Assembly (NCBI GenBank): GCA_964605975.1
Contig: CAZSER010000002.1
Coordinates: 1 to 43,059, forward strand
DNA length: 43,059 nucleotides
DNA from: an uncultured Gammaproteobacteria bacterium
GTDB taxonomy: Bacteria; Patescibacteriota; Patescibacteriia; UBA11705; JABHMO01
Direction of reading: 5' to 3'
Part shown: piece by piece, positions 3,531 through 16,883 of the stretch
Position numbering within the stretch: position 1 is the first letter of the stretch
Layout of the letters: every line of letters starts with the position of its first letter
Position numbers and translations under genes: made by a program
The notes under the pieces: model-generated
Database searches by the model: none
The model's input: only the letters and a program-made list of their open reading frames with translations
What the model was told of the DNA's origin: nothing

Positions 3531-4718
3531 TTATTTTATTTTTATAAAAAATCTTTTACCCTTTTGAATCACATCTCCAGTTCGCAAAACGACAGTGCCA
3601 TCAGAACAAATCTGGTCATTTATCTTAACGCCATTTTGCTCTATATTCCGCTTGGCATCAGATTTCGAGGAAACCAATCCACTCTCAACCAAAACTTCCA
3701 CTAAACTTTTTCCAACCAAATCAAACTCTTTAATTTCCTCCGGTTTTTCCTTTTGAGAAAAAGTTTTTACAAAGTTTTCTACTTGTTTTTTGGCTTCCTC
3801 TGCACCATGATAAATCGCCACTACCGCCTCCGCTAACTCTAGCTTAAGATTTCGTGGATTTTCTCCCTCAGAAATTCGCTTTTTTACCTCCGCTAAACGA
3901 TCTTCGTCTATTTGAGTACACAAATCAAAACCATTAATAATCATCCCATCACTCCATGACATTACCTTACCAAATTTATCACCAGCAGAATCATCTAAAC
4001 GCAACATATTCCCTTCGGACTTTCCCATTTTTTTTCCAGAATCATCAGTCAAAAGTTTTGTCGTAATAACAAATTTTTCTTTGTTTTTGAGAGACTTCAT
4101 CAAAGTTCTTCCTGCCAACATATTAAAAGTTTGATCATTCCCGCCAACTTCACCATCAACATCCATGGCAACAGAATCATAACCTTGCATCAACGGATAC
4201 AAAAATTCATGCAGACCGATTGGTTTGCCTTCTTTTATTCTCTTTTCAAACATATCTCGTTCCAACATTTGTTGAACCGTAAAATTAGAAGCTAACTCTA
4301 TAACTTCCTGAAAATTCATCTTGTCTAACCAATCAGCATTGAATTTTATTTCTGCTGGATTTTCTCCTGCAAAATCAATCCAAGCGGATGCTTGTTCTTT
4401 GTATTTCTCACAATTTGCCAAAACTTGTTGTCGCGTTAATGGTTGCCTAACGGAAGATTTATCAGTCGGATCACCAATCATGGCCGTAAAACTCCCAATT
4501 AGCAGAATAATTTTGTGTCCTAACTTTTGAAACTGCGCCAACTTCATCAAAGGGATAGCATGACCTAAATGCAAACTTGGCCCTGTGGGATCAACACCCA
4601 AATACAAAGTGATTTTATGTTTTGAATTTAAAAGCTCTTCTAAAAATTTAGCTGTGGGGTAAATTTTTTCTACCCCGCGAGTCAAAACTTGTTTAATTAT
4701 TTCTTGGTTTTTATTCAT
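3531..4718 (-). CDS. tyrS: Tyrosine--tRNA ligase
   Basis: 395-aa ORF. GVDPTGPSLHLGHAIPL (HIGH), KMGKSEGN (KMSKS), and a C-terminal S4-like domain (SKSDAKRNIEQNGVKIN). Confidence 0.92.
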   Translation of the reverse strand: MNKNQEIIKQVLTRGVEKIYPTAKFLEELLNSKHKITLYLGVDPTGPSLHLGHAIPLMKLAQFQKLGHKIILLIGSFTAMIGDPTDKSSVRQPLTRQQVLANCEKYKEQASAWIDFAGENPAEIKFNADWLDKMNFQEVIELASNFTVQQMLERDMFEKRIKEGKPIGLHEFLYPLMQGYDSVAMDVDGEVGGNDQTFNMLAGRTLMKSLKNKEKFVITTKLLTDDSGKKMGKSEGNMLRLDDSAGDKFGKVMSWSDGMIINGFDLCTQIDEDRLAEVKKRISEGENPRNLKLELAEAVVAIYHGAEEAKKQVENFVKTFSQKEKPEEIKEFDLVGKSLVEVLVESGLVSSKSDAKRNIEQNGVKINDQICSDGTVVLRTGDVIQKGKRFFIKIK

Positions 4719-4804: not shown

Positions 4805-4841
4805 AAAATCAAAAACAAAACAAGAAGATTATTCTTGTTTT
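4805..4841 (-). terminator. Rho-independent terminator downstream of the AAA+ gene
   Basis: Perfect 10-bp stem aaaacaagaa/ttcttgtttt (4817-4826 / 4832-4841) with a 5-nt loop. On the minus strand it is followed by a U-rich tract (gtttttgatttt). Confidence 0.6.
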
Positions 4842-4927
4842 GTCTTAAATTAGCTTTTTATTTAGATACTCCCCCACCAATAAAACCACTTCGCCTTCAC
4901 TAATTTTAATTTTTTTAAACAAAAACC

Positions 4928-7621
4928 TTAACTATTTTTTAATTTGTCCATCATTTCGACAGTTTTATCAAGACGCTCTTTTAATGTCACCAAAAAGCCT
5001 TCATTCTTAAAACCGTCTACATCATTATCTTCAAAGAAAGTAACTCGACGCAACAACTCTTCCAACTGCTTCTTTTCGGATTCTAATTTCAAAAATAGTT
5101 GGACTCTTTCTTCTGGTGTCATTTTGTTTGGATCAGGCATTACTTCTACTTCATTTGTAACTTTTTCTGGAATTTTTCTTGCCTGACCAGCAGGTTTTCC
5201 AAATAATAAATCCGCAACTTCTAATAAGTCATAATTTTTTCTTTTTACAAATTGACTATCATTTTTCTTAACACGAGTAATCGCATCAACTCCATATAAA
5301 AACTTTTTGTGTCCAGAAAAATTAACCAGCTCCTTCATCTCATTAAAATCAGTCGCCTCCGGCCAGTCAATTTCATCTTTTTCTTGAAAAAAGTTCCCGA
5401 CAATACTCAAGATTTTATAAATATACGCTTTTTCTTCTGGTCGCGCATCAGATTGTGAAACATAATAACGATACAAATAAACATCCAATGGAGAAGAAAA
5501 CCCGTCCTTTTTCCACTCACTCAAAATAGTGGCTAGTTCACGAAAAGTTAAAACATTTTCTTTCAAAACATCTCGCGGATCTATATTTGCACCACTGGAA
5601 TCCTTTAAATAGTAGTTTGTTTCAATTTTATTTCCCGAAAAAATATCCTGCAACCCCCTGGCGACAACAGCCAATCGATACAAAGCTTCTTCTCCCATTT
5701 TTTTATCTTCGGGCAAGGTCAAATTCCCATCATCATCCATTAAGCGAACAACCATCATATGAAAAAGTTCATTATTTGCCAATAATTTTCTTCTTTTTTC
5801 CATTTGTTGTTCAAAATTAGGATCTGTTTCCGAAATATTAATTAACCCCTCGCTATCAATAGCATTTGGCAAATAATCATATTTAATTTTATCAAAACGA
5901 GATAAGAAAGCAGAATCCATTGCTTGTCTTCCAATATAAACCTTATCCGTAGCTGGACGCCAATTACCAGTACAGATAAAAACAAAACCATCTTTGACTT
6001 CAAACGGTGGTAGATCATCTACCAAAGGCTTAACCAAATCGCCAGGTCTTCGAGTTAAAATTTCATTTAAAACAATCAATACATTATGCGGGATAGCATT
6101 AATTTCATCAATGATAACTGGACGCCCCTCCATCATGGCGCGATAAACTAACCCCAAATATCCCTTGGCTTCAATTGGATTTTTAAAAAAATCCTTCAAA
6201 GCATCAACATAAACGGCAACCAACTCTTCTACTCTATCCTCCGCCACGCTCTCTTCTTTTTTGCTTAAACGAAACGCCTCTATCTTATCACTAATTATTT
6301 TTGTTTGTTCTTCGGGCGTTCTCTTTATCACCTTTTCCATTTTAATTCCGCCCAATAGATCGGTAGTATCCGTATTTTTATTTCCAGAAATCACAAAAAC
6401 TTCATTTTTTAGCTCTTCATATTTAGCCAACCATTGTCGATATTTTTTTCTCCACTCTTTTAATTCTGCCGTTTTTTTACTAGTAGGCTGACTTCGGTAT
6501 TGTTCAAATTCTTTTACTGCTTTTTCATAATTTAATAATGCCTGATCAAAACTTTCTTGATCATCATAATCATCACGATCTGGATTAGGAAGAACTTCTG
6601 GTGCCTCCGGTTTCACTGGAGGAGGATTATCCTTCTTCCACCGTAGCAAGAACTTCTTGTTTAGCTGCGTTATAGACAAATGCCGAGCGACCTCCGTTTT
6701 ACCTGCCCCCTTTTCTCCATAAAGAAAAACCGGTCTTCCTTCTTCCAAAGAGTCCATGATTTCCGACATTTTTTCTAACACATACGGAGTTTCAACGACT
6801 CTCCTTCCTTTTCCTTCCGAAAAAACGGTCCGCATATCCATAATATTTTCAATCGCCACAGCATAATGAGCATCAACATCATCACGCAATAAAACATCTA
6901 ACTTTGTTTTTAATATTTTATAATCATTCTTTGCTTTATCCATGGTTTTATAATCACCACGCAAAGAAGCTCTCTCTCTTAAAGCCAACAAACTTTCTAA
7001 TCTTTTTTTTGTACGCTTTACCTTAACACCCATCCTAAAAATTCGATCTTTTTTAAATTCAAAAGTAGCAACATCTTCGTCAGTAAAATAGTTTTCACCA
7101 TCCTCATTGCCGGAGAGCTTGAGATATAGAGCTTTAATTTCAGCTAACTTCCCTACAATAAGTTCTATTTCTTGATTAACATAACTTTCTACTTCCTCCT
7201 TGTTTAAACTGTCTAAATCCTTAGTTGACAAAAAAAGCTGTTCTCTAATTTTTTTCTTGTTTATAAACTCCACACAACTTTGAGGATCAGAAACGGAAAG
7301 TCTATTCATTGTTAAACGACGATAACTTTTTTGAGAACTCCTTTCACTTTTTTCGATTTTTCTAACCACCTTACCATCATTACCAGAAGATAACCTTTCT
7401 TTTGGCAGTTTAACGCTCTTAATATTTTTTATTTCATCTCCACCAGATAATGCCTTCAAAAAAGGTCTAATATCTCTCCATAACCGGTGGTACTCTCGAT
7501 AGGTCTCGAAATACTCTTTCGCTTTAAGGAGCCTTGTTTCATAATTCTCAATTTCTTCTGGCGAAGCTTTTTCTCTCTCCTTTGCTTTTGGAATAGCAAT
7601 AAAATTTTCACGTAATACCAT
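4928..7621 (-). CDS. Large AAA+ ATPase, AAA_5/MoxR-like module with insertions, flanked by long N- and C-terminal extensions
   Basis: 897-aa ORF. Walker A GEKGAGKT (nt 6695-6718), Walker B PVIIDEINAI (about nt 6104-6118), sensor-1-like FVFICTGN, and an Arg-finger region DSAFLSRFDKI. ISGNKNTDTTDLLGG resembles the AAA_5 signature. Confidence 0.75.
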   Translation of the reverse strand: MVLRENFIAIPKAKEREKASPEEIENYETRLLKAKEYFETYREYHRLWRDIRPFLKALSGGDEIKNIKSVKLPKERLSSGNDGKVVRKIEKSERSSQKSYRRLTMNRLSVSDPQSCVEFINKKKIREQLFLSTKDLDSLNKEEVESYVNQEIELIVGKLAEIKALYLKLSGNEDGENYFTDEDVATFEFKKDRIFRMGVKVKRTKKRLESLLALRERASLRGDYKTMDKAKNDYKILKTKLDVLLRDDVDAHYAVAIENIMDMRTVFSEGKGRRVVETPYVLEKMSEIMDSLEEGRPVFLYGEKGAGKTEVARHLSITQLNKKFLLRWKKDNPPPVKPEAPEVLPNPDRDDYDDQESFDQALLNYEKAVKEFEQYRSQPTSKKTAELKEWRKKYRQWLAKYEELKNEVFVISGNKNTDTTDLLGGIKMEKVIKRTPEEQTKIISDKIEAFRLSKKEESVAEDRVEELVAVYVDALKDFFKNPIEAKGYLGLVYRAMMEGRPVIIDEINAIPHNVLIVLNEILTRRPGDLVKPLVDDLPPFEVKDGFVFICTGNWRPATDKVYIGRQAMDSAFLSRFDKIKYDYLPNAIDSEGLINISETDPNFEQQMEKRRKLLANNELFHMMVVRLMDDDGNLTLPEDKKMGEEALYRLAVVARGLQDIFSGNKIETNYYLKDSSGANIDPRDVLKENVLTFRELATILSEWKKDGFSSPLDVYLYRYYVSQSDARPEEKAYIYKILSIVGNFFQEKDEIDWPEATDFNEMKELVNFSGHKKFLYGVDAITRVKKNDSQFVKRKNYDLLEVADLLFGKPAGQARKIPEKVTNEVEVMPDPNKMTPEERVQLFLKLESEKKQLEELLRRVTFFEDNDVDGFKNEGFLVTLKERLDKTVEMMDKLKNS

Positions 7622-7640
7622 ATTTTTTATATTAATTTTC

Positions 7641-9896
7641 TTAATTATCCGAACTAAGAACTTCTATTTGAGTTAATGCTTTATCTATTTGTTGTGATAA
7701 TAAAATCACACATTTTTCGACATAATCTGAAACTGTTTCAACGACAACACCATCCCCATTCAAATCATCCTCTGCATTCCCATGAATCCCAAAAAATACC
7801 GTTCTCGCCTGCTCACTATAAGGCCCCCTTATTTTCTCACCTTTTTCGTCAATTATTGGAAGATCAATCAAAAAAGCTTTGGTAATTATAGTTTCTTTGT
7901 CTTTTCCTTTTAAAGCATGAATAATATTTCTTGTTTTTTGGGAATCACGAATAAGACCATCTGTTGTTTCCAAAGTAATATCAACCAATTTTCTTTCTTT
8001 AATTCTCTTTCTATCCTCTGGCAAAAAAGTTGCATCCACCAACTCCCAAGCAGGAAAACTTACTGTATCCTCATGAGAAGCATCCATTTTGGCAAAAGCA
8101 GCGTATCTCATAATTCGATCCTCTATTCCATTTCTCGCTTGCCCATTGCGCAATAAAGGTTTTACTTCTTTCATTTTATCTTCTTCACCCCAAACAATTA
8201 CTTGAGTATTAACCAAAATTGGAGGTTTTGTTAGATTTAACTCCCGAAAACGATTTTCTAATCGTGACTGAAATTCATTTAAAGCCTCCGAAAAAAGCAC
8301 CATCATTTGACGAGCCGAATGCATTATATCTCCTTTCATAGATCCCGAATTATCAAACAAAAACCGCAAACGAAACTCGTCCGGTTGTAATTTTAATTTC
8401 TCAATAAACTCTTTTCGTTCATAAGCCTCTAGTCTATCAAAGGGAATAAAAAAATCTTCCTCTTCACTAGAAAAAAAATGGCTGTACCTCTTTAATAATC
8501 TTTTGACATCCAACCTACCAGAATAAAAATATTTTTCCCAAGCAAAAGAAATCTGTTTTTCTATCGTATTAATTGCTCTCTCAAATATAGTTGCCAAATC
8601 ATCCCGATAAGGCTCAACTGACTTTTTTAACGCCTCATAACTCATTATATGCTCCGCTGTTACTCCCTCCGCAGTTAAGCGCTCTTGGTGCGCTCTGTAA
8701 AAATCTAGCGACTCCTGTCTATCATAATAATCTTTTTTTTGTTCTGGAGTTAATCTTTCATATCTTTTCTTTTTGTTTTCTTGTCTTTTTTTACTTCTAT
8801 CAAACTTCTTTCTCTCTTCAATAAATTTTTTAACCTCTTCAATATCAAAAGGCATTTCGGTTATTGAATTTTTATCAGGCTTTTTATTTGAGATTTTACC
8901 TTTACTTCTTTCACCCTCACCCTCACCCTTGTTGCATGGATCATCTAGTGGTATTTCCATGTCAGAGAAATCTAATTCTAATAAACGCCAAAATTCTGGC
9001 TCCAGAAACTGCTCTATTTTTGAGTATCTCAAAGAAGCCAAATCTTTTCTGTGTTTCAAGTTAGGATCAGGAGTGGTTATCTGTTCTGTAAGATCAGTCA
9101 AGCTTGTTCCAAAAAAGTTTTTAGACAAAGTATTATAAACATCCGGATGACATAAAATCCTCTGATCAGGAACCATTCTTTGACGCAAAAGAACTCCGCC
9201 AAACTGATCTACTCTCATTCCCATGAAAAAACACAGATCCTCAGCACCACTTTCTTCTCCCCTAGCCTTGGCTGGAAAAAGAAAGTCTCGATATAATCTC
9301 TTGACCATTGGAGAAGTCCCCGCACCAAACTGACTTAATTTAACCCCAACAAACCTATTAACATAAATATCATCCAAATAGTTATAAAATTTATTCCTTT
9401 GTGATGTTAAAAACAGTTCCAGTCCGGTCATTTTTTCTCCCGTTTTTTCGTCAATAACTCTTTCTTTATCTATCCATGCTGGTAATTTAGAAAATCGCTT
9501 ATTCAATATTTCACGAAAAAATGACGCTTTTTCTCTAGCCAGTTCTTTACTTTTTTGAAAGTTACTTAATAAACCCTCCGGATCTGCCACCAAATCAGCA
9601 AAGTGCGCTAATTCATGACAACATGCCCAAAGTGGAGCATCTTTCTCTCCATTAAGTTCATGTTTCCATTTAAAAAGCTCCAACCCCAACTGAACTTTCC
9701 CTTCCAAAAACTGAATATGACTGCCCTCTCCTACTTGATATTGCAAACTACTATCACCAGAAATAATATCTAAAATATCCTTATTAAAAGAAATGAAATC
9801 TTCCGCTTCTTTTCGCAACTCCTCTGGATTAATAATTCTTTTTTTCTTCGGAGTGCTTATTCTTTCTTCTGCCAAAAAATTAAAGCTCTTTTCCAT
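7641..9896 (-). CDS. HExxH (zincin-like) N-terminal region + C-terminal von Willebrand factor A (MIDAS) domain protein
   Basis: 751-aa ORF. CCHELAHFADL holds the HExxH (nt 9603-9617). LRFLFDNSGSMKGD holds the DxSxS MIDAS motif (nt 8340-8354), with a downstream ETTDG motif. A Lys/Glu/Arg-rich linker covers aa ~320-400. The gene lies 19 nt upstream of the AAA+ gene on the same strand. Confidence 0.7.
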   Translation of the reverse strand: MEKSFNFLAEERISTPKKKRIINPEELRKEAEDFISFNKDILDIISGDSSLQYQVGEGSHIQFLEGKVQLGLELFKWKHELNGEKDAPLWACCHELAHFADLVADPEGLLSNFQKSKELAREKASFFREILNKRFSKLPAWIDKERVIDEKTGEKMTGLELFLTSQRNKFYNYLDDIYVNRFVGVKLSQFGAGTSPMVKRLYRDFLFPAKARGEESGAEDLCFFMGMRVDQFGGVLLRQRMVPDQRILCHPDVYNTLSKNFFGTSLTDLTEQITTPDPNLKHRKDLASLRYSKIEQFLEPEFWRLLELDFSDMEIPLDDPCNKGEGEGERSKGKISNKKPDKNSITEMPFDIEEVKKFIEERKKFDRSKKRQENKKKRYERLTPEQKKDYYDRQESLDFYRAHQERLTAEGVTAEHIMSYEALKKSVEPYRDDLATIFERAINTIEKQISFAWEKYFYSGRLDVKRLLKRYSHFFSSEEEDFFIPFDRLEAYERKEFIEKLKLQPDEFRLRFLFDNSGSMKGDIMHSARQMMVLFSEALNEFQSRLENRFRELNLTKPPILVNTQVIVWGEEDKMKEVKPLLRNGQARNGIEDRIMRYAAFAKMDASHEDTVSFPAWELVDATFLPEDRKRIKERKLVDITLETTDGLIRDSQKTRNIIHALKGKDKETIITKAFLIDLPIIDEKGEKIRGPYSEQARTVFFGIHGNAEDDLNGDGVVVETVSDYVEKCVILLSQQIDKALTQIEVLSSDN

Positions 9897-9939
9897 AAAT
9901 TACACTAAATTTTTATAACTCTATTTTATCATAATGATG

Positions 9940-9970
9940 AAAAAAAATAAAAGCACCTAATGGTGCTTTT
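9940..9970 (-). terminator. Rho-independent terminator downstream of valS
   Basis: Stem aaaagcacc/ggtgctttt (9949-9957 / 9962-9970) with a 4-nt loop. It is flanked by A- and T-runs, so it could act in both directions. It begins 6 nt after the valS stop. Confidence 0.65.
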
Positions 9971-9975
9971 ATTTT

Positions 9976-12900
9976 TTACTGTAAATTTTTAACTGTTTCA
10001 ATAATTTTTTGTTGACGATCTTTTGCTTCCGTTAATTTGTTTTTTTCGGACTCAACAATATTGAGTGGAGCATTTTTAACAAAATCTTCATTTTCTAATT
10101 TAGTTGATAAATTTTTAATATATTTTTCCAAATTAGCCAACTCTTCTTTCTGTCTCTTGACTTCTATTTGCAAATCCAATAACTTGGCCAAAGGCAAGTA
10201 AATCGTTGTTTTGCCAACAATGGCAGAAGCCGATTGTGGCGGTTTTTCGGTGACAACTTCAATCTCATTAAGTCGTGCCAAAACTTTTAAAATTTCTAGT
10301 GATGGATACCATTTCTCAACTTCACCAGATAAACACAACCGAACCTTTTTAACCGGATCAATTTTATAAGTTGCCCTGATATTTCTTACGGCACCAACTA
10401 ACTGACGAAACTCTTCATAAAACTCCTCCGCGTCAATATCCATCATACTCAAAGAACTTTCTGGCCATTTCTCAATTAACAAAAATTTTTCTGGCTGGAA
10501 TTTTTCATAAACAGCCTGACTAACAAAAGGAATATATGGTTGCCAATATTTCAAAAGTTCCAATAATAAATTATAAAAAATTTTTTCTTTCCCTTTTTCG
10601 ACTTTACTAATTTCCAAATACCAATCGGCCAAATCATCCCACATAAACTCTCGCAAAACTTCACCCGAAGCCGAAAAGTTGTATTCATCCAAAAGTTGCG
10701 TTGTTTTTTGTTTCACTTTTTGCCATTTCGAAACAATTGCTCGATCAAAAACTGTCCAATCTTTTTGCTCTCCCCAGTCACCTTCTTGCATTTGCGACCC
10801 CCCCCCCTTTTCTTCCAAAAGAGTAAATAGATATCTAGAGATATTCCATAACTTATTAACTAAATTACGAAAACCTTCGATTTTTTCATCATATAAACGA
10901 ATATCATTCCCTGCCGTATTCCCGACTAACAAACTCAAACGAACAGCATCCATACCGTATTTTTCTCCAGCAATTAACGGATCAATTGCCGTCTGTGGTT
11001 TTGATTTGCTCATCTTGTCACCATCTTTGTCGCGAATTAAACCATGTAAATAGACCGTCTCAAAAGGAATTTCTCCGATATTATAAGTTGTCATCAAAAT
11101 CATTCTAGCCACCCAAAAAAACAAAATATCATACCCCGTTTCCATAACAGAAACCGGATGAAATTTTTTAATATCCTCCGAAGAAAAACTTTTTCCATCC
11201 CAATCTTCTGGCAACATTGTAGAAAATGTCCATAATCCAGAACTAAACCAAGTGTCCAAAGTATCTTCATCTTGCAACCAACCATCTTCCACTATCTCTG
11301 TCTCCGAAACTTTTATTTCTGTTGGTGCTAAATCTAACTCAAAATAACAACCAGTATTTGGATATGGCAATTTGGTAAAATTTTCCGCTTCATAATTGTT
11401 CCCCAAAAAGCTAGCCATGCGAATAGAATCTCCATGCGCCACAACTAAAACAGTTCTCTTAGCAAATTTATCTTGTAAATCCTGACACGCCTCGTAAACT
11501 CTTTTTTGCAAAGAGTTAAAAGATTCAATGTTTCGTGGAGTTCCATCTTTCCATTGTGGCCAATTTTTTTCTCGAAAATCACTAAATTCCTCATCGGTCA
11601 TCCCCTCAAAATCACCAACACCCACTTCTCGCCAACGAGAATCGGCAATCAACTCCGAAACACCTAACTCTTGAGCCAAAATTTCTGCCGTTTGTTTTGT
11701 TCTAGTAAAATCTGAATAAATTATTAAATCTATCTTTTTGTTTTTTAATTCTTGGGCCGATTTTTTGACTTCTTCTACCCCTAAATCAGTTAAAACATTT
11801 TCTATTTTAGAAATATCCGAATTTAAAAAACCTTTTTGATTTCCCACAGCTTGACCATGCCGAAAAAATATAACCTTCTTTCCTTGTTTATACCAAACGG
11901 GAATTCTGTGACCAAACCAAATTTGTCTAGAAATACACCAATCATGCAAATTATCCATCCAATGTTCATAAGTTTTTGCAAAACGATCCGGAATAATTTT
12001 TATTTCTCCCGATTTAACAACCTGTAAAGCAACATCTTTCAGAGATGCCCCTCGTTCAAAATATTTATTTCCCTTTTTGGTAATTTTTTTATTAACATCA
12101 ACAAACCACTGATTAGAAGGAATAGGCTCTATCGCCGTACCACAACGATAACAAAGTGATAAATTATGTTTTAAATCTTCCTGTTGCGAAATTAAATTTT
12201 GACCTTCTAAACATTGAACTATTTTTTCTCGAGCTTCAAGAGCGGTAAACCCGAAATATCTTCCAGCCTCTCGAGTCATTTTACCTTCTTCATCAATAAC
12301 CCTGATTAAAGGTAACCTGTTTTTTTGAGACATTTCATAATCCACCGAACTATGCGCCGGTGTCACACCCAACGCGCCTGTTCCAAAAGTAGGATCAACA
12401 TTTTCATCAGCAATAATTTTTAGTTTTAACTTATTACCACAAAAATCAGCCAAAATAGTTTTGCCAATAAATTTTTGATACCGTTCATCTTGCGGATTAA
12501 CCGCTACGGCCGTATCTCCCAACTTTGTCTCCGGTCGAGTAGTAGAAATTTCAAAAGGGAAATTTTTATCATAGCGAAAAGTATAAAACTTAGTTGTTTT
12601 TTCCTTGTAATCTACTTCATCATCAGCCAAGGTAGATTGACAACGAGGACACCAATTAACAATTCTATAACCACGATAAATTAACCCATCATCAAACATG
12701 TTTTTAAAAACTTTGCGAACAACACGACTTCGTAACTCATCCAAGGTATAAGCCTCTCGAGACCAATCCAAAGCAGAACCAACTTTTTTGATCTGTTTTT
12801 TTATTGTTGATTTAGACTCTTCAACATGTTCTTCCACTTTTTGCAAAAAATCCTTTCGGCCAAAATCATGTCTGGATTTTCCTTCCGTTTTTAATAATTT

Positions 12901-13188
12901 TTTTTCAACAACATTTTGCGTCGCAATAGAAGCATGATCCGTTCCGGGGATCCAAACAGTGGTAAACCCCTGCATTTTTTTATAACGAATCATTAAATCT
13001 TCAATTGCCAACATCGAAGCGTGACCTAAATGCAATGTTCCAGTCACATTTGGAGGTGGTAAAACAATGGAAAAATGTTTCCCGTTTTTAACTGGTCCAC
13101 AATCAGGAGAGAAAAGCTTTTTATTTTCCCACTCTTGATAAATTCTTTCTTCATTTTCTTGCGGATTATAAACCTTACAAAAATCCAT
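9976..13188 (-). CDS. valS: Valine--tRNA ligase with an embedded histidine-phosphatase (PGAM-like) domain
   Basis: 1070-aa ORF. PPPNVTGTLHLGHA (HIGH), editing-domain motifs TTRPETKLGDTAVAVNP and GTGALGVTPAHSSVDYE, WCISRQIWFGHRIPVWY, DTLDTWFSSG, KMSKSK, and a C-terminal coiled coil. An extra segment of about 190 aa (aa ~437-625) carries FFRHGQAVGN and VVAHGDSIRM. Confidence 0.92.
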   Translation of the reverse strand: MDFCKVYNPQENEERIYQEWENKKLFSPDCGPVKNGKHFSIVLPPPNVTGTLHLGHASMLAIEDLMIRYKKMQGFTTVWIPGTDHASIATQNVVEKKLLKTEGKSRHDFGRKDFLQKVEEHVEESKSTIKKQIKKVGSALDWSREAYTLDELRSRVVRKVFKNMFDDGLIYRGYRIVNWCPRCQSTLADDEVDYKEKTTKFYTFRYDKNFPFEISTTRPETKLGDTAVAVNPQDERYQKFIGKTILADFCGNKLKLKIIADENVDPTFGTGALGVTPAHSSVDYEMSQKNRLPLIRVIDEEGKMTREAGRYFGFTALEAREKIVQCLEGQNLISQQEDLKHNLSLCYRCGTAIEPIPSNQWFVDVNKKITKKGNKYFERGASLKDVALQVVKSGEIKIIPDRFAKTYEHWMDNLHDWCISRQIWFGHRIPVWYKQGKKVIFFRHGQAVGNQKGFLNSDISKIENVLTDLGVEEVKKSAQELKNKKIDLIIYSDFTRTKQTAEILAQELGVSELIADSRWREVGVGDFEGMTDEEFSDFREKNWPQWKDGTPRNIESFNSLQKRVYEACQDLQDKFAKRTVLVVAHGDSIRMASFLGNNYEAENFTKLPYPNTGCYFELDLAPTEIKVSETEIVEDGWLQDEDTLDTWFSSGLWTFSTMLPEDWDGKSFSSEDIKKFHPVSVMETGYDILFFWVARMILMTTYNIGEIPFETVYLHGLIRDKDGDKMSKSKPQTAIDPLIAGEKYGMDAVRLSLLVGNTAGNDIRLYDEKIEGFRNLVNKLWNISRYLFTLLEEKGGGSQMQEGDWGEQKDWTVFDRAIVSKWQKVKQKTTQLLDEYNFSASGEVLREFMWDDLADWYLEISKVEKGKEKIFYNLLLELLKYWQPYIPFVSQAVYEKFQPEKFLLIEKWPESSLSMMDIDAEEFYEEFRQLVGAVRNIRATYKIDPVKKVRLCLSGEVEKWYPSLEILKVLARLNEIEVVTEKPPQSASAIVGKTTIYLPLAKLLDLQIEVKRQKEELANLEKYIKNLSTKLENEDFVKNAPLNIVESEKNKLTEAKDRQQKIIETVKNLQ

Positions 13189-14450: not shown

Positions 14451-14527
14451 GGGCCTGTAGCTCAGTCGGTAAGAGCACCACTCTTATAAAGTGGGGGTCC
14501 TGGGTTCAAATCCCAGCAGGCCCACCA
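14451..14527 (+). tRNA. tRNA-Ile, anticodon UAU
   Basis: Hand-folded cloverleaf. Acceptor gggcctg/caggccc, D stem gctc/gagc, anticodon stem ccact/agtgg with loop cTTATAa, T arm ctggg-ttcaaat-cccag, discriminator A, encoded CCA. A TcGACA-17-TATAAT promoter sits at 14408-14436. Confidence 0.8.
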
Positions 14528-14597
14528 TAATTTTTCAACATAAAAAAATAATAAATTGACAAAAACTACTATTTTGCTATTATAAATAAGCTTTTTT

Positions 14598-14674
14598 GGG
14601 CGCTTAGCTCAGTTGGTTAGAGCGTCTCGTTGACGTCGAGAAGGTCAGTGGTTCGAATCCACTAGCGCCCACCA
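14598..14674 (+). tRNA. tRNA-Val, anticodon GAC
   Basis: Acceptor gggcgct/agcgccc, anticodon stem tctcg/cgaga with loop ttGACgt, T arm agtgg-ttcgaat-ccact, encoded CCA. TTGACA at 14556-14561 with a TATTAT-like -10 element. Confidence 0.9.
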
Positions 14675-14703
14675 TTTTTTTAAAAAAATTTAGGATAACT
14701 TAT

Positions 14704-14781
14704 GGGCCCTTAGCTCAGTTTGGCTAGAGCGCTTCCATGGCATGGAAGAGGTCGCAGGTTCGAGCCCTGTAGGGTCCACCA
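14704..14781 (+). tRNA. tRNA-Ala, anticodon GGC
   Basis: Acceptor gggccct/agggtcc with the G3:U70 alanine identity pair. Anticodon stem cttcc/ggaag with loop atGGCat, T arm gcagg-ttcgagc-cctgt, encoded CCA. Confidence 0.9.
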
Positions 14782-14955: not shown

Positions 14956-16026
14956 ATGAAAAAGGGTAATGAAGGATTTGTTTTTCGGTTTTTTGTCAAG
15001 AAAGCCAAGATGGCAGTTCAGATTGAATTGCCGTTCTGTGCTAATCTTGGAGATTTCTTTTCCTGCTTCCTGATTGCCCAGGAAGCCGGAAAGGGGTTCT
15101 TGGTTAAGAACGCCCCGAAGGGGAAAATCTCCATTGGGCGCAACTTCCGAGAACTGGAAGTTGATGGCGCCTGCTCAGAAGAACCTTGGCTGTTCTTTGC
15201 TAAGTATCTCGGAGTTAGCGAAAAGCCGGAATACCAACCGTTTTTTGCCTACCTCGAGAATAATGAGGGAAGAAAAGCCGAGAATGGATTTTGGCAGTTT
15301 ATTAATAACTGCTATCGATTATGGGGATGCGAAGAAAAAACCTTCCAGCAGGTTTTTCTTATCGCCATTTTGGCGATAAAAGTCCAACTTCTCTACCCTG
15401 GAGAGTTTTCTCTCTCCGAGATAAAAAGGAAGTTTGGACTTTTGAGCCCAGAGCTTCAAAGCTGGTTTGGAGCACTGGTTCAGTCCGTTGAGGACGGTTG
15501 TGCTGTTCTCCGACAAGAGGCGAGGCAAGAGATTGCCGATCGAAACGGGGACAAGTTTCTCATATTTCAGAGTGATAATCCCTTTGTCATTTCTGAACAA
15601 GTAAAGAAAAACCCCCAAACCGACCTGATTGTCCAGGAGTTTAGTGATGGACATTTTGTCCTAGCTAATCCTTCTGGTGGACTATTACCAGAACTTTTTC
15701 GGGGACTTAATGTTCTTGAAAATGAGTCCGGAAAAGTCCTCAATTGGGACGAACTCTCAAAACCGGGAGTTGGACCAGGAAAGTTTTGGTACCTCTCTCC
15801 TGGTAGAAACCTACTGAGCAACGGCGGCCCCGCCCTGCCCGCAATGTCCAGGGGAAAAAGTGACATAGTTAACTTCATTGAGCAATGGTATAACAACATT
15901 GCATTTGGAGAAGAATGTCCTCGAACCGGAGCAGAACATTGCACCAGTTCGAAAAAATTGCCCTGTCGAGAGTTCAAATTTGGCTGGACGATCTGTCGTC
16001 AAATACGCCAATCAGTCAAAGATTAG
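14956..16026 (+). CDS. Hypothetical protein, compositionally atypical (GC-rich), C-terminal 4-Cys cluster
   Basis: 356-aa uninterrupted ORF with a strong SD. No family recognised. The C-terminus reads EECPRTGAEHCTSSKKLPCREFKFGWTICRQ. Five overlapping long ORFs in other frames indicate stop-codon-poor, GC-rich DNA. Confidence 0.6.
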   Translation: MKKGNEGFVFRFFVKKAKMAVQIELPFCANLGDFFSCFLIAQEAGKGFLVKNAPKGKISIGRNFRELEVDGACSEEPWLFFAKYLGVSEKPEYQPFFAYLENNEGRKAENGFWQFINNCYRLWGCEEKTFQQVFLIAILAIKVQLLYPGEFSLSEIKRKFGLLSPELQSWFGALVQSVEDGCAVLRQEARQEIADRNGDKFLIFQSDNPFVISEQVKKNPQTDLIVQEFSDGHFVLANPSGGLLPELFRGLNVLENESGKVLNWDELSKPGVGPGKFWYLSPGRNLLSNGGPALPAMSRGKSDIVNFIEQWYNNIAFGEECPRTGAEHCTSSKKLPCREFKFGWTICRQIRQSVKD

Positions 16027-16039
16027 ATTTTGTCGTTCC

Positions 16040-16072
16040 GCCCGGATCATCAAAGATCCGGGCTTTTTTTTT
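16040..16072 (+). terminator. Rho-independent terminator of the GC-rich ORF
   Basis: 9-bp GC-rich stem gcccggatc/gatccgggc, 6-nt loop, then T9. Confidence 0.8.
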
Positions 16073-16073
16073 A

Positions 16074-16104
16074 TAAAAAAAGCTTCGTCTATTTTAGACG
16101 AAGC
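16074..16104 (-). terminator. Rho-independent terminator of the lipoprotein gene
   Basis: 9-bp stem gcttcgtct/agacgaagc (16082-16104). On the minus strand it is followed by U7 (plus-strand A-run 16075-16081). It lies 14 nt past the minus-strand stop. Confidence 0.7.
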
Positions 16105-16118
16105 GGAACGACAAAGAA

Positions 16119-16883
16119 CTACAATTTTTCAAAGACAAACGGCAACTGTTTATCTTGGACAGAGCTATCACTATACAAGCAAAAAGCAGTAACCTTTTCG
16201 GCTAAGGCATTAGTTGAAGAAAAAACAAACTTTTTTCCATAATTTAGACATTCCAAAGAAAAAACTTTTTTTTGCAAAGAACCATTACAATAATAAACTT
16301 CCCCTAATGGGATATTAGTCAAAGTTCCTTGCAAAACAGCCACCTTCTGACTCAAATTTGCCGACAAAACCAAAGAAGAAGCATCCTGTTGATATATAAC
16401 CACCTTCCAGAGCCCCTCATAATCACAACAAGGATAATCCATACAGGTTTGTGATTCTGGTTCAAAATATCTCTCGGCCGAACAAAAACTAACACAACTT
16501 TCTCCATCCCAATAATATCCCAAATCACAAACTATCATAGTATCAATTTCCATAATAATATCATTCTCTAAAAAATCTTCATTAACCTCAGAAATTAATT
16601 CTTCATCAACTTCAAAAATGTCAAAATCTTTTTCTTGCTTAATTTCTAAAATATCATTAAAGAGAACTTCTTTACTTTCAAAAAAATCATCTACCCCAAC
16701 ATGATTATCTAAACTATATTCATCCGGTAAAATTACCCCATCAAGGGAACCTTCAAAATCAATATTCTGAATATTATCATTATTTTTAGAAATTACAGAA
16801 TCTTCTTCTCCCCAAAGAACATGAAAAGAACACCCGACAAAAATAACCGAGCAAAAAAACAAAATAATATACCCATTTTTCAT
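16119..16883 (-). CDS. Putative secreted lipoprotein, acidic N-terminal half and Cys-rich C-terminal half
   Basis: 254-aa ORF. The N-terminus MKNGYIILFFCSVIFVGCSF looks like a signal peptide with a lipobox-like VGC. The middle is D/E-rich. A cysteine cluster follows: CDLGYYWDGESCVSFCSAERYFEPESQTCMDYPCCDY. Confidence 0.55.
   Translation of the reverse strand: MKNGYIILFFCSVIFVGCSFHVLWGEEDSVISKNNDNIQNIDFEGSLDGVILPDEYSLDNHVGVDDFFESKEVLFNDILEIKQEKDFDIFEVDEELISEVNEDFLENDIIMEIDTMIVCDLGYYWDGESCVSFCSAERYFEPESQTCMDYPCCDYEGLWKVVIYQQDASSLVLSANLSQKVAVLQGTLTNIPLGEVYYCNGSLQKKVFSLECLNYGKKFVFSSTNALAEKVTAFCLYSDSSVQDKQLPFVFEKL

Follow-up and report, generated by a model that had tools for sequence, protein, structure and literature searches.

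Two genes that lie between valS (9976-13188, upstream) and tyrS (3531-4718, downstream) in the 43,059-nt stretch of contig CAZSER010000002.1 analysed here (the window) raise the question what a cell of the Patescibacteria does with an ATPase and a von Willebrand factor A (vWA) partner that are encoded together, with no client gene beside them. Inspection of the open reading frames (ORFs) called on the window showed that both are intact and co-oriented on the minus strand, one encoding a 751-aa protein with a HExxH motif and a C-terminal vWA domain, and the other an 897-aa AAA_5 ATPase. The initial annotation of this stretch had described an AAA_5/MoxR-type ATPase and vWA couple without an adjacent client. 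Both statements were borne out, by the Pfam AAA_5 match and intact motifs of the ATPase, by the vWA model and metal ion-dependent adhesion site (MIDAS) of the partner, and by the identity of the two neighbours. Our analysis suggests, with a probability of about 0.55, that the pair forms the conserved core of a cytoplasmic AAA_5/vWA machine which is specific to Patescibacteria and would be coupled to interchangeable hypervariable binders. It resembles the core of an uncharacterised machine for recognition or defence more than a chaperone with a housekeeping role, because the pairs of its relatives sit beside arrays of hypervariable binding proteins.

Distribution and co-inheritance of the pair

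An exhaustive profile search with the vWA partner among 1.84e9 proteins returned 424 representatives at E<=1e-30 (clusters at 50% identity), most of them 650-850 aa long. When one genome per species was scanned with a strict pattern, 31 loci were found, nearly all labelled Patescibacteria. The labels included Falkowbacteria, Saccharibacteria (many), Moranbacteria, Uhrbacteria and Nanosyncoccus, and a few metagenome-assembled genomes were labelled otherwise. As judged from these searches, the pair is a new family that is almost entirely restricted to Patescibacteria.

The conservation of the neighbourhood in relatives, on which the initial annotation had staked its reading, was confirmed. A same-strand ATPase gene was found within 0-4 kb of the vWA gene at 27 of the 27 distinct genome loci with enough flank, as counted from ORF calls and hidden Markov model searches; the eight apparent exceptions were all contig-edge cases. 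Most of the metagenome loci that had been seeded with the ATPase carried the vWA gene too. The neighbour-joining trees of the two proteins were congruent and resolved the same three clades, and the ATPase and its partner are near-obligate neighbours that have co-diverged. The gene order differs across the family: the arrangement with the vWA gene first, which had been regarded as distinctive of the pair, was true for one clade and confined to it. In a relative with only 38% identity (L015), the order valS, vWA gene, ATPase gene, tyrS, 146-aa gene was retained, implying vertical inheritance at the locus. The setting of the pair at L010:624-7948 was different again, where the ATPase and vWA genes directly follow rpsH (S8), at the place where rplF would normally continue the operon; this contig stops right after the vWA gene.

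No relatives of the partner were found by a scan of viral_contigs and by tblastn against 50,697 phage records. The ATPase showed weak similarity to Staphylococcus phage ATPases, in the AAA core only. Since the partner had no viral relatives and the similarity of the ATPase was weak, a phage origin of the pair was rejected. It had also been argued that the pair has an important function, as it is kept in a minimal genome; since the family occurs patchily in Patescibacteria, this argument is weak.

Variable third components in relatives

The initial annotation had called the locus a self-contained two-gene module. This holds at the window locus, but not across the family as far as can be judged from gene content, because relatives carry a variable third component beside the pair, in the form of beta-propeller arrays, leucine-rich repeat (LRR)-like arrays or diversity-generating retroelement (DGR) cassettes. 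As to the third partner that the initial annotation had proposed to look for, relatives carry one that varies in type, and the window carries none.

Beta-propeller paralogs were observed at 12 loci at least, in 1-6 tandem copies that adjoin the two genes or lie between them. Their first 75-100 residues formed, as read from the sequence, a conserved helical segment, and the identity among paralogs was 43-93% in this N-terminus versus 27-67% in the remainder. The N-terminus was more conserved by at least 20 points of identity in 7 of 9 beta-propeller loci and in the LRR-like set of L014.

Around the pair of L001, which belongs to the window's own clade, at least 10 small LRR-like paralogs were found with a common N-terminus and variable repeats, and three LRR-like paralogs flank the pair of L014. 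The C-terminus of the L014 ATPase (L014:12453-15224, aa ~780-918) contained the same 22-23-aa LRR-like repeats as the three flanking genes, implying that binder repeats can be fused to the motor itself. Two other genes near the pair in L001 and L014, c14 (glycosyl-hydrolase-like) and c15 (DUF5667), were judged to reflect local synteny and not to be partners.

DGR cassettes were found in another clade (L016, L017, L020, L022, L025, L036, L056 and others). In these, the vWA gene has an RVT_1 reverse transcriptase (RT) gene directly upstream and is separated from the ATPase gene by a target gene that bears a variable repeat. The complete cassettes of L017:7065-15188 and L020:1-7000 contained a target with its variable repeat (VR), the template repeat (TR), the RT, the vWA gene, a second target with its VR, and the ATPase. 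The target proteins were ~350 aa long and had no Pfam domain, with the VR at the 3' end of the gene. All 43 TR-to-VR mismatches of L020 were at TR adenines, as were 48 of 63 in L017, whose VRs are located at 7984-8104 and 12965-13085.

The beta-propeller and DGR-target proteins had a common N-terminal 'C-Q/E-x-L' helix, with a modest match (hhalign probability of 45%, E=2e-4). No match was found by hhalign among the other N-terminal adaptors, or of adaptors against the ATPase and vWA proteins. At L007, genes that lie between the ATPase and vWA genes and behind them (L007:4300-5772 and 9186-10445) showed weak to moderate matches to Pfam GXGXG (E=7e-7 and 6.5e-10), and are followed by a WD40-like gene; the GXGXG genes may be a further type of third component.

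No homologs of the beta-propeller, LRR-like adaptor, RT or DGR-target genes were found in the 43-kb window. It carries the bare core; specificity components are either missing or encoded in another part of the genome. No signal peptide or clear transmembrane segment was found in the vWA protein, the ATPase or the LRR-like proteins. The hydropathy of the other binders was borderline: 2 of 29 propeller ORFs exceeded a Kyte-Doolittle 19-residue mean of 1.6, and the maximum of the DGR targets was 1.56.

The AAA_5 ATPase

Pfam AAA_5 (PF07728) matched the ATPase with E=5e-11 (43.2 bits, cutoff of 22), and also matched five homologs. The match was made in two stretches, interrupted by an insertion after the Walker A helix (~aa 330-410) which was variable, and missing or longer in homologs, in the alignment of six ATPase sequences (alignment A2). 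The top library match of the protein was the phage CobS-like family phrog_249 (E=5e-20). A word-indexed protein search with the ATPase, both as a single sequence and as a profile, gave just one real homolog, so the ATPase homologs were gathered from the family loci.

A single Walker A/B set was found, with a Walker A pattern, GxxGxGK[TS], that was invariant among the 27 ATPase family members. The TGN at 551-553 and R575 were likewise invariant (27/27), corresponding to the sensor-1 Asn and the conserved Arg before strand 5. In alignment A2, ~65 aa separated strand 2 from Walker B, a stretch that may be compatible with a helix-2 insert, and the invariant residues of the C-terminal extension included W703, G707, P728, E730, F744, F745, W753 and P754. 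By its Pfam match and its motifs, the ATPase is assigned to the AAA_5 / MoxR-dynein-midasin clade, with all catalytic motifs intact. The NCBIfam models of characterised MoxR subfamilies gave no match, the best being GvpN (E=2e-3, 17.5 bits versus a cutoff of 266.8), and nothing significant was found by a PDB sequence search with the ATPase family profile.

The HExxH and vWA partner

Fourteen homologs of the partner were obtained by word search, and the AlphaFold model made from a 14-sequence alignment reached a predicted local distance difference test (pLDDT) score of 79.5. The model divides the protein into a HExxH domain, a charged linker, a helical stalk and a vWA domain (Table 1). Longer D/E/K-rich linkers were found in homologs at the position of the linker.

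For the C-terminal 250 aa of this model, Foldseek returned 47 vWA-type matches in the PDB at E<=1e-3. The best were to the MIDAS domain of Rea1/MDN1 (E=3.7e-6 to 2e-5; TM-scores of 0.51-0.57, root-mean-square deviation of 7.6-15.8 Å), followed by TRAP, TEM8, NorD (9qh8_G) and integrin I domains. The profile searches that the initial annotation recommended gave AAA_5 in the ATPase, no VWA match in the window partner itself and no DUF2201_N match in the 14 members; PF00092 was reached by 5 of the 14 homologs at E<=0.1, and P0014 and P0008, when scanned singly, exceeded the cutoff. According to the model, the C-terminus of the partner is a vWA domain with a full MIDAS site.

The N-terminal domain has a polar cluster centred on the HExxH, with the invariant residues H94, E95, H98, N172, D175, D176, N180, Y202, Q231 and R290, and D101, after the HExxH, was conserved in 30 of 31. 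The HELAH sequence was placed within helix 86-104 of the domain model, preceded by a three-strand sheet, and the third metal ligand might be D101 or D175/D176 (the latter 31/31). Because it is invariant, the HExxH motif can be taken from the alignment as real and under selection; it was also present in 26 of 30 metagenome relatives. When modelled alone, the domain gave a confident model (pLDDT of 86.2, pTM of 0.84), which had no match in the PDB better than E=0.8. The structural comparison that had been suggested thus succeeded for the vWA domain and found no relative of the N-domain, and of the 'zincin-type HExxH' of the initial annotation the motif stood, with the zincin fold unproven from the model. 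The N-domain might be a very divergent zincin, since a three-strand sheet precedes the HExxH helix. Among the viral models of BFVD, the matches were weak and non-significant: phage CobT-like/VWFA proteins came top (E 0.18-4, TMq 0.24-0.36), yet the query contained no vWA domain, which makes them a pointer and no proof, and phage 'lethal factor' models appeared at E about 4 only. A relation to isoprenoid synthases (Foldseek E>3) was treated as noise. The only peptidase family of Pfam to match the partner was M78, sub-threshold (E=0.025) and at aa 394-436, away from the HExxH. As modelled, the ~300-aa HExxH domain is a new conserved domain without a structural relative among solved structures.

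Two distant vWA-family members of ~625 aa (L079:10200-12080 and L080:10218-12092) lacked both the HExxH and the NxxDD, and kept the MIDAS site and the neighbouring ATPase. Judging from these residues, the N-domain of this subclade is probably catalytically inactive.

Comparison with known ATPase and vWA systems

Couples of vWA and MoxR proteins with variable sensors and DGRs have been described by comparative genomics as conflict systems (PMC7159879, PMC10907252), and a pathway of MoxR, vWA and beta-propeller proteins in Actinobacteria has been shown experimentally to sense Saccharibacteria (PMC13622651). The vWA-MoxR ternary conflict systems (Kaur, Burroughs, Iyer, Aravind 2020, PMC7159879; VMAP, iSTAND, FtsH and beta-propeller types) and the DGR-linked MoxR systems (Doré et al. 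2024, PMC10907252) resemble the present family in their constant core of a MoxR-clade AAA+ ATPase and a vWA protein, in their predicted cytoplasmic components, and in a variable third component with beta-propeller and DGR association, which is seen here in relatives and not in the window. In the ternary systems, however, the vWA domain is N-terminal and effectors are C-terminal, whereas the present family has its vWA domain at the C-terminus, after a novel HExxH domain, and no canonical effectors were seen. The family ATPase is ~650-970 aa long with large N- and C-terminal extensions, the binders are separate small proteins in tandem arrays and not fusions, and the hosts are Patescibacteria, not multicellular bacteria. 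No third component of the iSTAND or FtsH type was found by Pfam and PADLOC, and no VMAP either, VMAP profiles not being among the models searched. The best reading is that the pair would be a remodelling switch of the MoxR/vWA type, analogous to, yet distinct from, the vWA-MoxR ternary conflict systems.

NorQ/NorD, CbbQ/CbbO, RavA/ViaA and CoxD/CoxE likewise combine an AAA_5/MoxR-type ring ATPase with a vWA/MIDAS partner. In NorQ/NorD, a vWA 'finger' is inserted in the pore of the MoxR hexamer and ATP drives the remodelling of a linker in the partner (PMC13036017, PMC9976466); the linker of the present partner is probably remodelled by its motor in a similar way, and the vWA domain of NorD was among its structural matches. 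In contrast to these chaperone couples, no client gene for NOR, Rubisco or CO dehydrogenase was found nearby, the ATPase is about three times larger, the partner has a HExxH domain, and the NCBIfam equivalogs were unmatched.

DUF2201_N (PF13203) and DUF2201 (PF09967) form 'metallopeptidase-vWA' proteins that are encoded beside MoxR ATPases, and are thus alike in concept, with a HExxH domain fused to a vWA-like domain. The members of the present family are nearly twice as long, with a linker and a stalk between the domains, and no match to PF13203 or PF09967 at E<=0.1 was found in any of the 14 members. From these comparisons, the pair falls within the broad AAA_5/MoxR and vWA kind and outside every characterised subfamily, as the initial annotation had supposed; nothing significant was obtained with the NCBIfam, PADLOC, Pfam DUF2201 and CobT models.

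Proposed mechanism and rival explanations

By analogy with NorQ/NorD, CbbQ/CbbO, Rea1 and the vWA-MoxR ternary systems, the ATPase would form a hexameric ring, on or in which the vWA domain of the partner would dock. The MIDAS metal would capture an acidic residue of a bound protein, and ATP hydrolysis would pull on the helical stalk and the charged linker. This pulling might remodel or release the cargo, and might expose or activate the N-terminal HExxH domain, which would be the output of the machine, most likely as a metal-dependent hydrolase or peptidase. The variable binders would dock via their conserved N-terminal helices and supply the specificity for targets, which might be proteins of invaders or other intracellular proteins. 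As for the two functions offered by the initial annotation, a conflict or defence module is favoured by the comparative evidence and is the better supported, and a remodelling or proteolytic machine the less supported of the two.

Several observations weigh against a recognition machine of this kind. No typical defence effector (nuclease, TIR, caspase and the like) was seen beside the pair, and PADLOC gave weak matches to the ATPase only (DolB, 7e-6; mad8, 3e-3). A third component near the pair is lacking in the window, in L015 and at several other loci. At L066:6517-9323 and L074:7248-11956, which have at least 7 kb of flank, the ATPase gene was found beside DGR-target-like genes (one or two), and a vWA gene was missing from at least 6.5 kb on either side; to judge from their gene content, these loci look like a variant whose motor is paired with variable proteins directly. 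The HExxH was lost in a small subclade (L079, L080 and L101), and the domain has no recognisable zincin fold when compared with solved structures, so a peptidase output is a guess. Moreover, the conserved setting among translation genes and the vertical inheritance would agree with a housekeeping function no less than with an immune module that is stably retained.

In such a housekeeping role, the pair would be an assembly or remodelling chaperone with a fixed, unlinked client. It might, for example, be a split counterpart of eukaryotic Rea1/midasin with one AAA module, which would remove beta-propeller assembly factors from large particles, ribosomal or other. Rea1 (MDN1) has an AAA_5-type motor and a charged linker followed by a MIDAS domain, and a charged linker precedes the MIDAS domain here as well; the best structural matches of the vWA domain were Rea1/MDN1 MIDAS domains bound to the ubiquitin-like (UBL) domains of the substrates Ytm1 and NLE1. 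These substrates are UBL plus WD40 proteins (Ytm1, Rsa4/NLE1), and beta-propeller partners occur in many of the related loci. The pair lies between valS and tyrS in both the window and L015, follows rpsH directly in L010, and is inherited vertically. However, a single ~5000-aa chain of Rea1 contains six AAA modules as well as the MIDAS domain, whereas one AAA module was found here, with the MIDAS domain on a separate protein, and the TM-scores of the Rea1 matches were modest. The propeller partners are multi-copy and variable, with N-termini that are helical by sequence and have no obvious UBL. A fixed client would be just the reverse of these tandem arrays of fast-diverging paralogs, of the LRR-like arrays and of the DGR-mutagenised proteins. 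The family is distributed patchily (31 species representatives with the strict pattern), and in genomes of ~1 Mb almost any gene is put beside translation genes. We consider a housekeeping role unlikely. It is rather improbable, too, that the pair assembles or presents binders that recognise the host surface, as a host-interaction or attachment device of episymbiotic candidate phyla radiation (CPR) cells. The DGRs of CPR have been proposed to serve host attachment, and vWA domains are common adhesion modules, as was seen among the Foldseek matches. The family is essentially restricted to Patescibacteria, many Saccharibacteria included, and CPR genomes are enriched in DGRs (PMC8144416). But AAA+ motors work in the cytoplasm, the vWA protein, ATPase and LRR-like proteins have no export signal or membrane segment, the hydropathy of the propeller and DGR-target proteins hardly exceeds the borderline given above, and secretion or pilus genes were not consistently linked in the loci.

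The match of the ATPase to phrog_249 would also fit a chelatase-like pair of the CobS/CobT or BchI/BchD type, which loads metal into an unlinked enzyme. CobT and BchD are built of an N-domain, an acidic linker and a C-terminal vWA domain, a layout that the partner resembles, and its vWA-free N-domain model weakly matched phage CobT-like/VWFA proteins. Such a role is nevertheless very improbable: no match to Pfam CobT or CobT_C at E<=0.1 was found in the 14 members, the BFVD matches were non-significant, phage and viral-contig homologs of the partner were lacking, no CobN/BchH-like large subunit was encoded in any locus, and the arrays of variable binders and the DGRs would be left unexplained. 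Least probable of all, in our estimate, is that the pair in the window's genome is the stranded remnant of a three-part system whose specificity component and function have been lost. The 43-kb contig without a third component would agree with this; yet it is one contig of the genome, and the partner search covered no more than that. Both ORFs are intact in a genome of 34% GC, and all family-invariant residues are kept. L015 retains the same bare arrangement at only 38% identity, which implies long purifying selection.

Locus layout and neighbouring genes

The positions of the features are given in Table 1. The two genes form an operon, with a spacer that implies their co-transcription; that they are co-oriented and 19 nt apart was confirmed from the ORF coordinates. 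Downstream of the pair, tyrS is followed by a 146-aa ORF and then by argS. The hairpins that had been said to bracket the pair were both recovered, the one behind the ATPase gene by a consensus scan and the one behind valS by direct reading, the latter not being among the listed results of the scan. The hairpin behind valS probably shields the pair from valS transcription. The possible extended -10 element named in the initial annotation is present, but promoter-like sites were as frequent in shuffled sequence (17.1) as in the window (17), with no enrichment, so the element is a plausible reading.

Table 1. Coordinates of the ATPase and vWA partner genes, their protein regions and the adjoining signals in the window
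Feature	Position	Strand	Remarks
Single-module AAA_5 ATPase gene	4928..7621	(-)	897 aa; Pfam AAA_5, phrog_249
ATPase N-terminal region, aa 1-275	6797..7621	(-)	K/E-rich, poorly conserved (alignment A2)
ATPase AAA+ core, aa 276-600	5822..6796	(-)	Pfam AAA_5 in two stretches
Walker A GEKGAGKT, aa 302-309	6695..6718	(-)	G302, G305, G307 and K308 invariant 27/27
Walker B IIDE, aa 503-506	6104..6115	(-)	D505 and E506 invariant 27/27
ATPase C-terminal extension, aa 601-897	4931..5821	(-)	Conserved (alignment A2); no Pfam match
Partner gene (HExxH domain, charged linker, helical stalk, vWA-MIDAS)	7641..9896	(-)	751 aa
Partner N-terminal alpha/beta domain, aa 20-312	8961..9839	(-)	From conservation and domain model; fold without known match
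HExxH (HELAH), aa 94-98	9603..9617	(-)	H94, E95 and H98 invariant 31/31
Charged low-complexity linker, aa 313-350	8847..8960	(-)	Disordered; pLDDT <50 for aa 323-349
Helical stalk, aa 351-500	8397..8846	(-)	Linker to vWA; from model secondary structure
vWA/MIDAS domain, aa 501-746	7659..8396	(-)	From Foldseek and homolog PF00092 matches
MIDAS DxSxS, D515-N-S517-G-S519	8340..8354	(-)	T611 and D646 complete the site; all five invariant 31/31
Intergenic spacer	7622..7640		19 nt, from ORF coordinates
GC-rich hairpin AAAAGCACC-ATTA-GGTGCTTTT and T-run	9949..9970	(-)	Read from sequence; directly 3' of valS stop codon
Possible extended -10 element TGATAAAAT	9923..9931	(-)	Read from sequence; 27 nt upstream of ATG
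Terminator-like AT-rich hairpin, 15 pairs, and T-run	4812..4846	(-)	Consensus scan; 3' of ATPase gene

Two further observations were made in the surroundings of the pair. The valyl-tRNA synthetase (ValRS; 1070 aa, minus strand) has a His_Phos_1 domain at aa 439-615 (Pfam E=1.3e-32), by which the class-I catalytic core is divided into two stretches. The same insertion was found in the ValRS of L015 (L015:6721-9903; E=4.6e-35). This histidine-phosphatase insertion is unusual, and is conserved between the window and L015. Directly after three tRNA genes (14451-14778), the stretch 14956-16192 has ~40% GC versus ~33% in its surroundings and holds a 356-aa Cys-rich ORF without a Pfam match as well as several overlapping ORFs on both strands; no Rfam family was matched in this GC-rich stretch (14.9-16.2 kb), which may be a foreign or unusual gene.

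Implications for Patescibacteria

Through this family, a subset of DGR targets, as well as arrays of beta-propeller and LRR-like proteins, is linked to a defined core of two proteins that is driven by ATP. The tie of the variable binders to the core is a testable hypothesis, with concrete proteins to co-express. The family would also extend the vWA-MoxR sensor logic, which was described for multicellular bacteria and shown in Actinobacteria that sense Saccharibacteria (PMC13622651), to the epibionts themselves. More tentatively, and at somewhat less than even odds, the pair might be the constant engine of an undescribed, Patescibacteria-wide intracellular recognition system, into which binders such as beta-propeller arrays, LRR-like arrays and DGR-mutagenised lectin-like proteins plug via conserved N-terminal helices that differ between the classes. 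If this is true, the long-unexplained DGR repertoire of the CPR would in part supply a sensing machine of an immune-like, anticipatory kind, at work in the smallest cells known.

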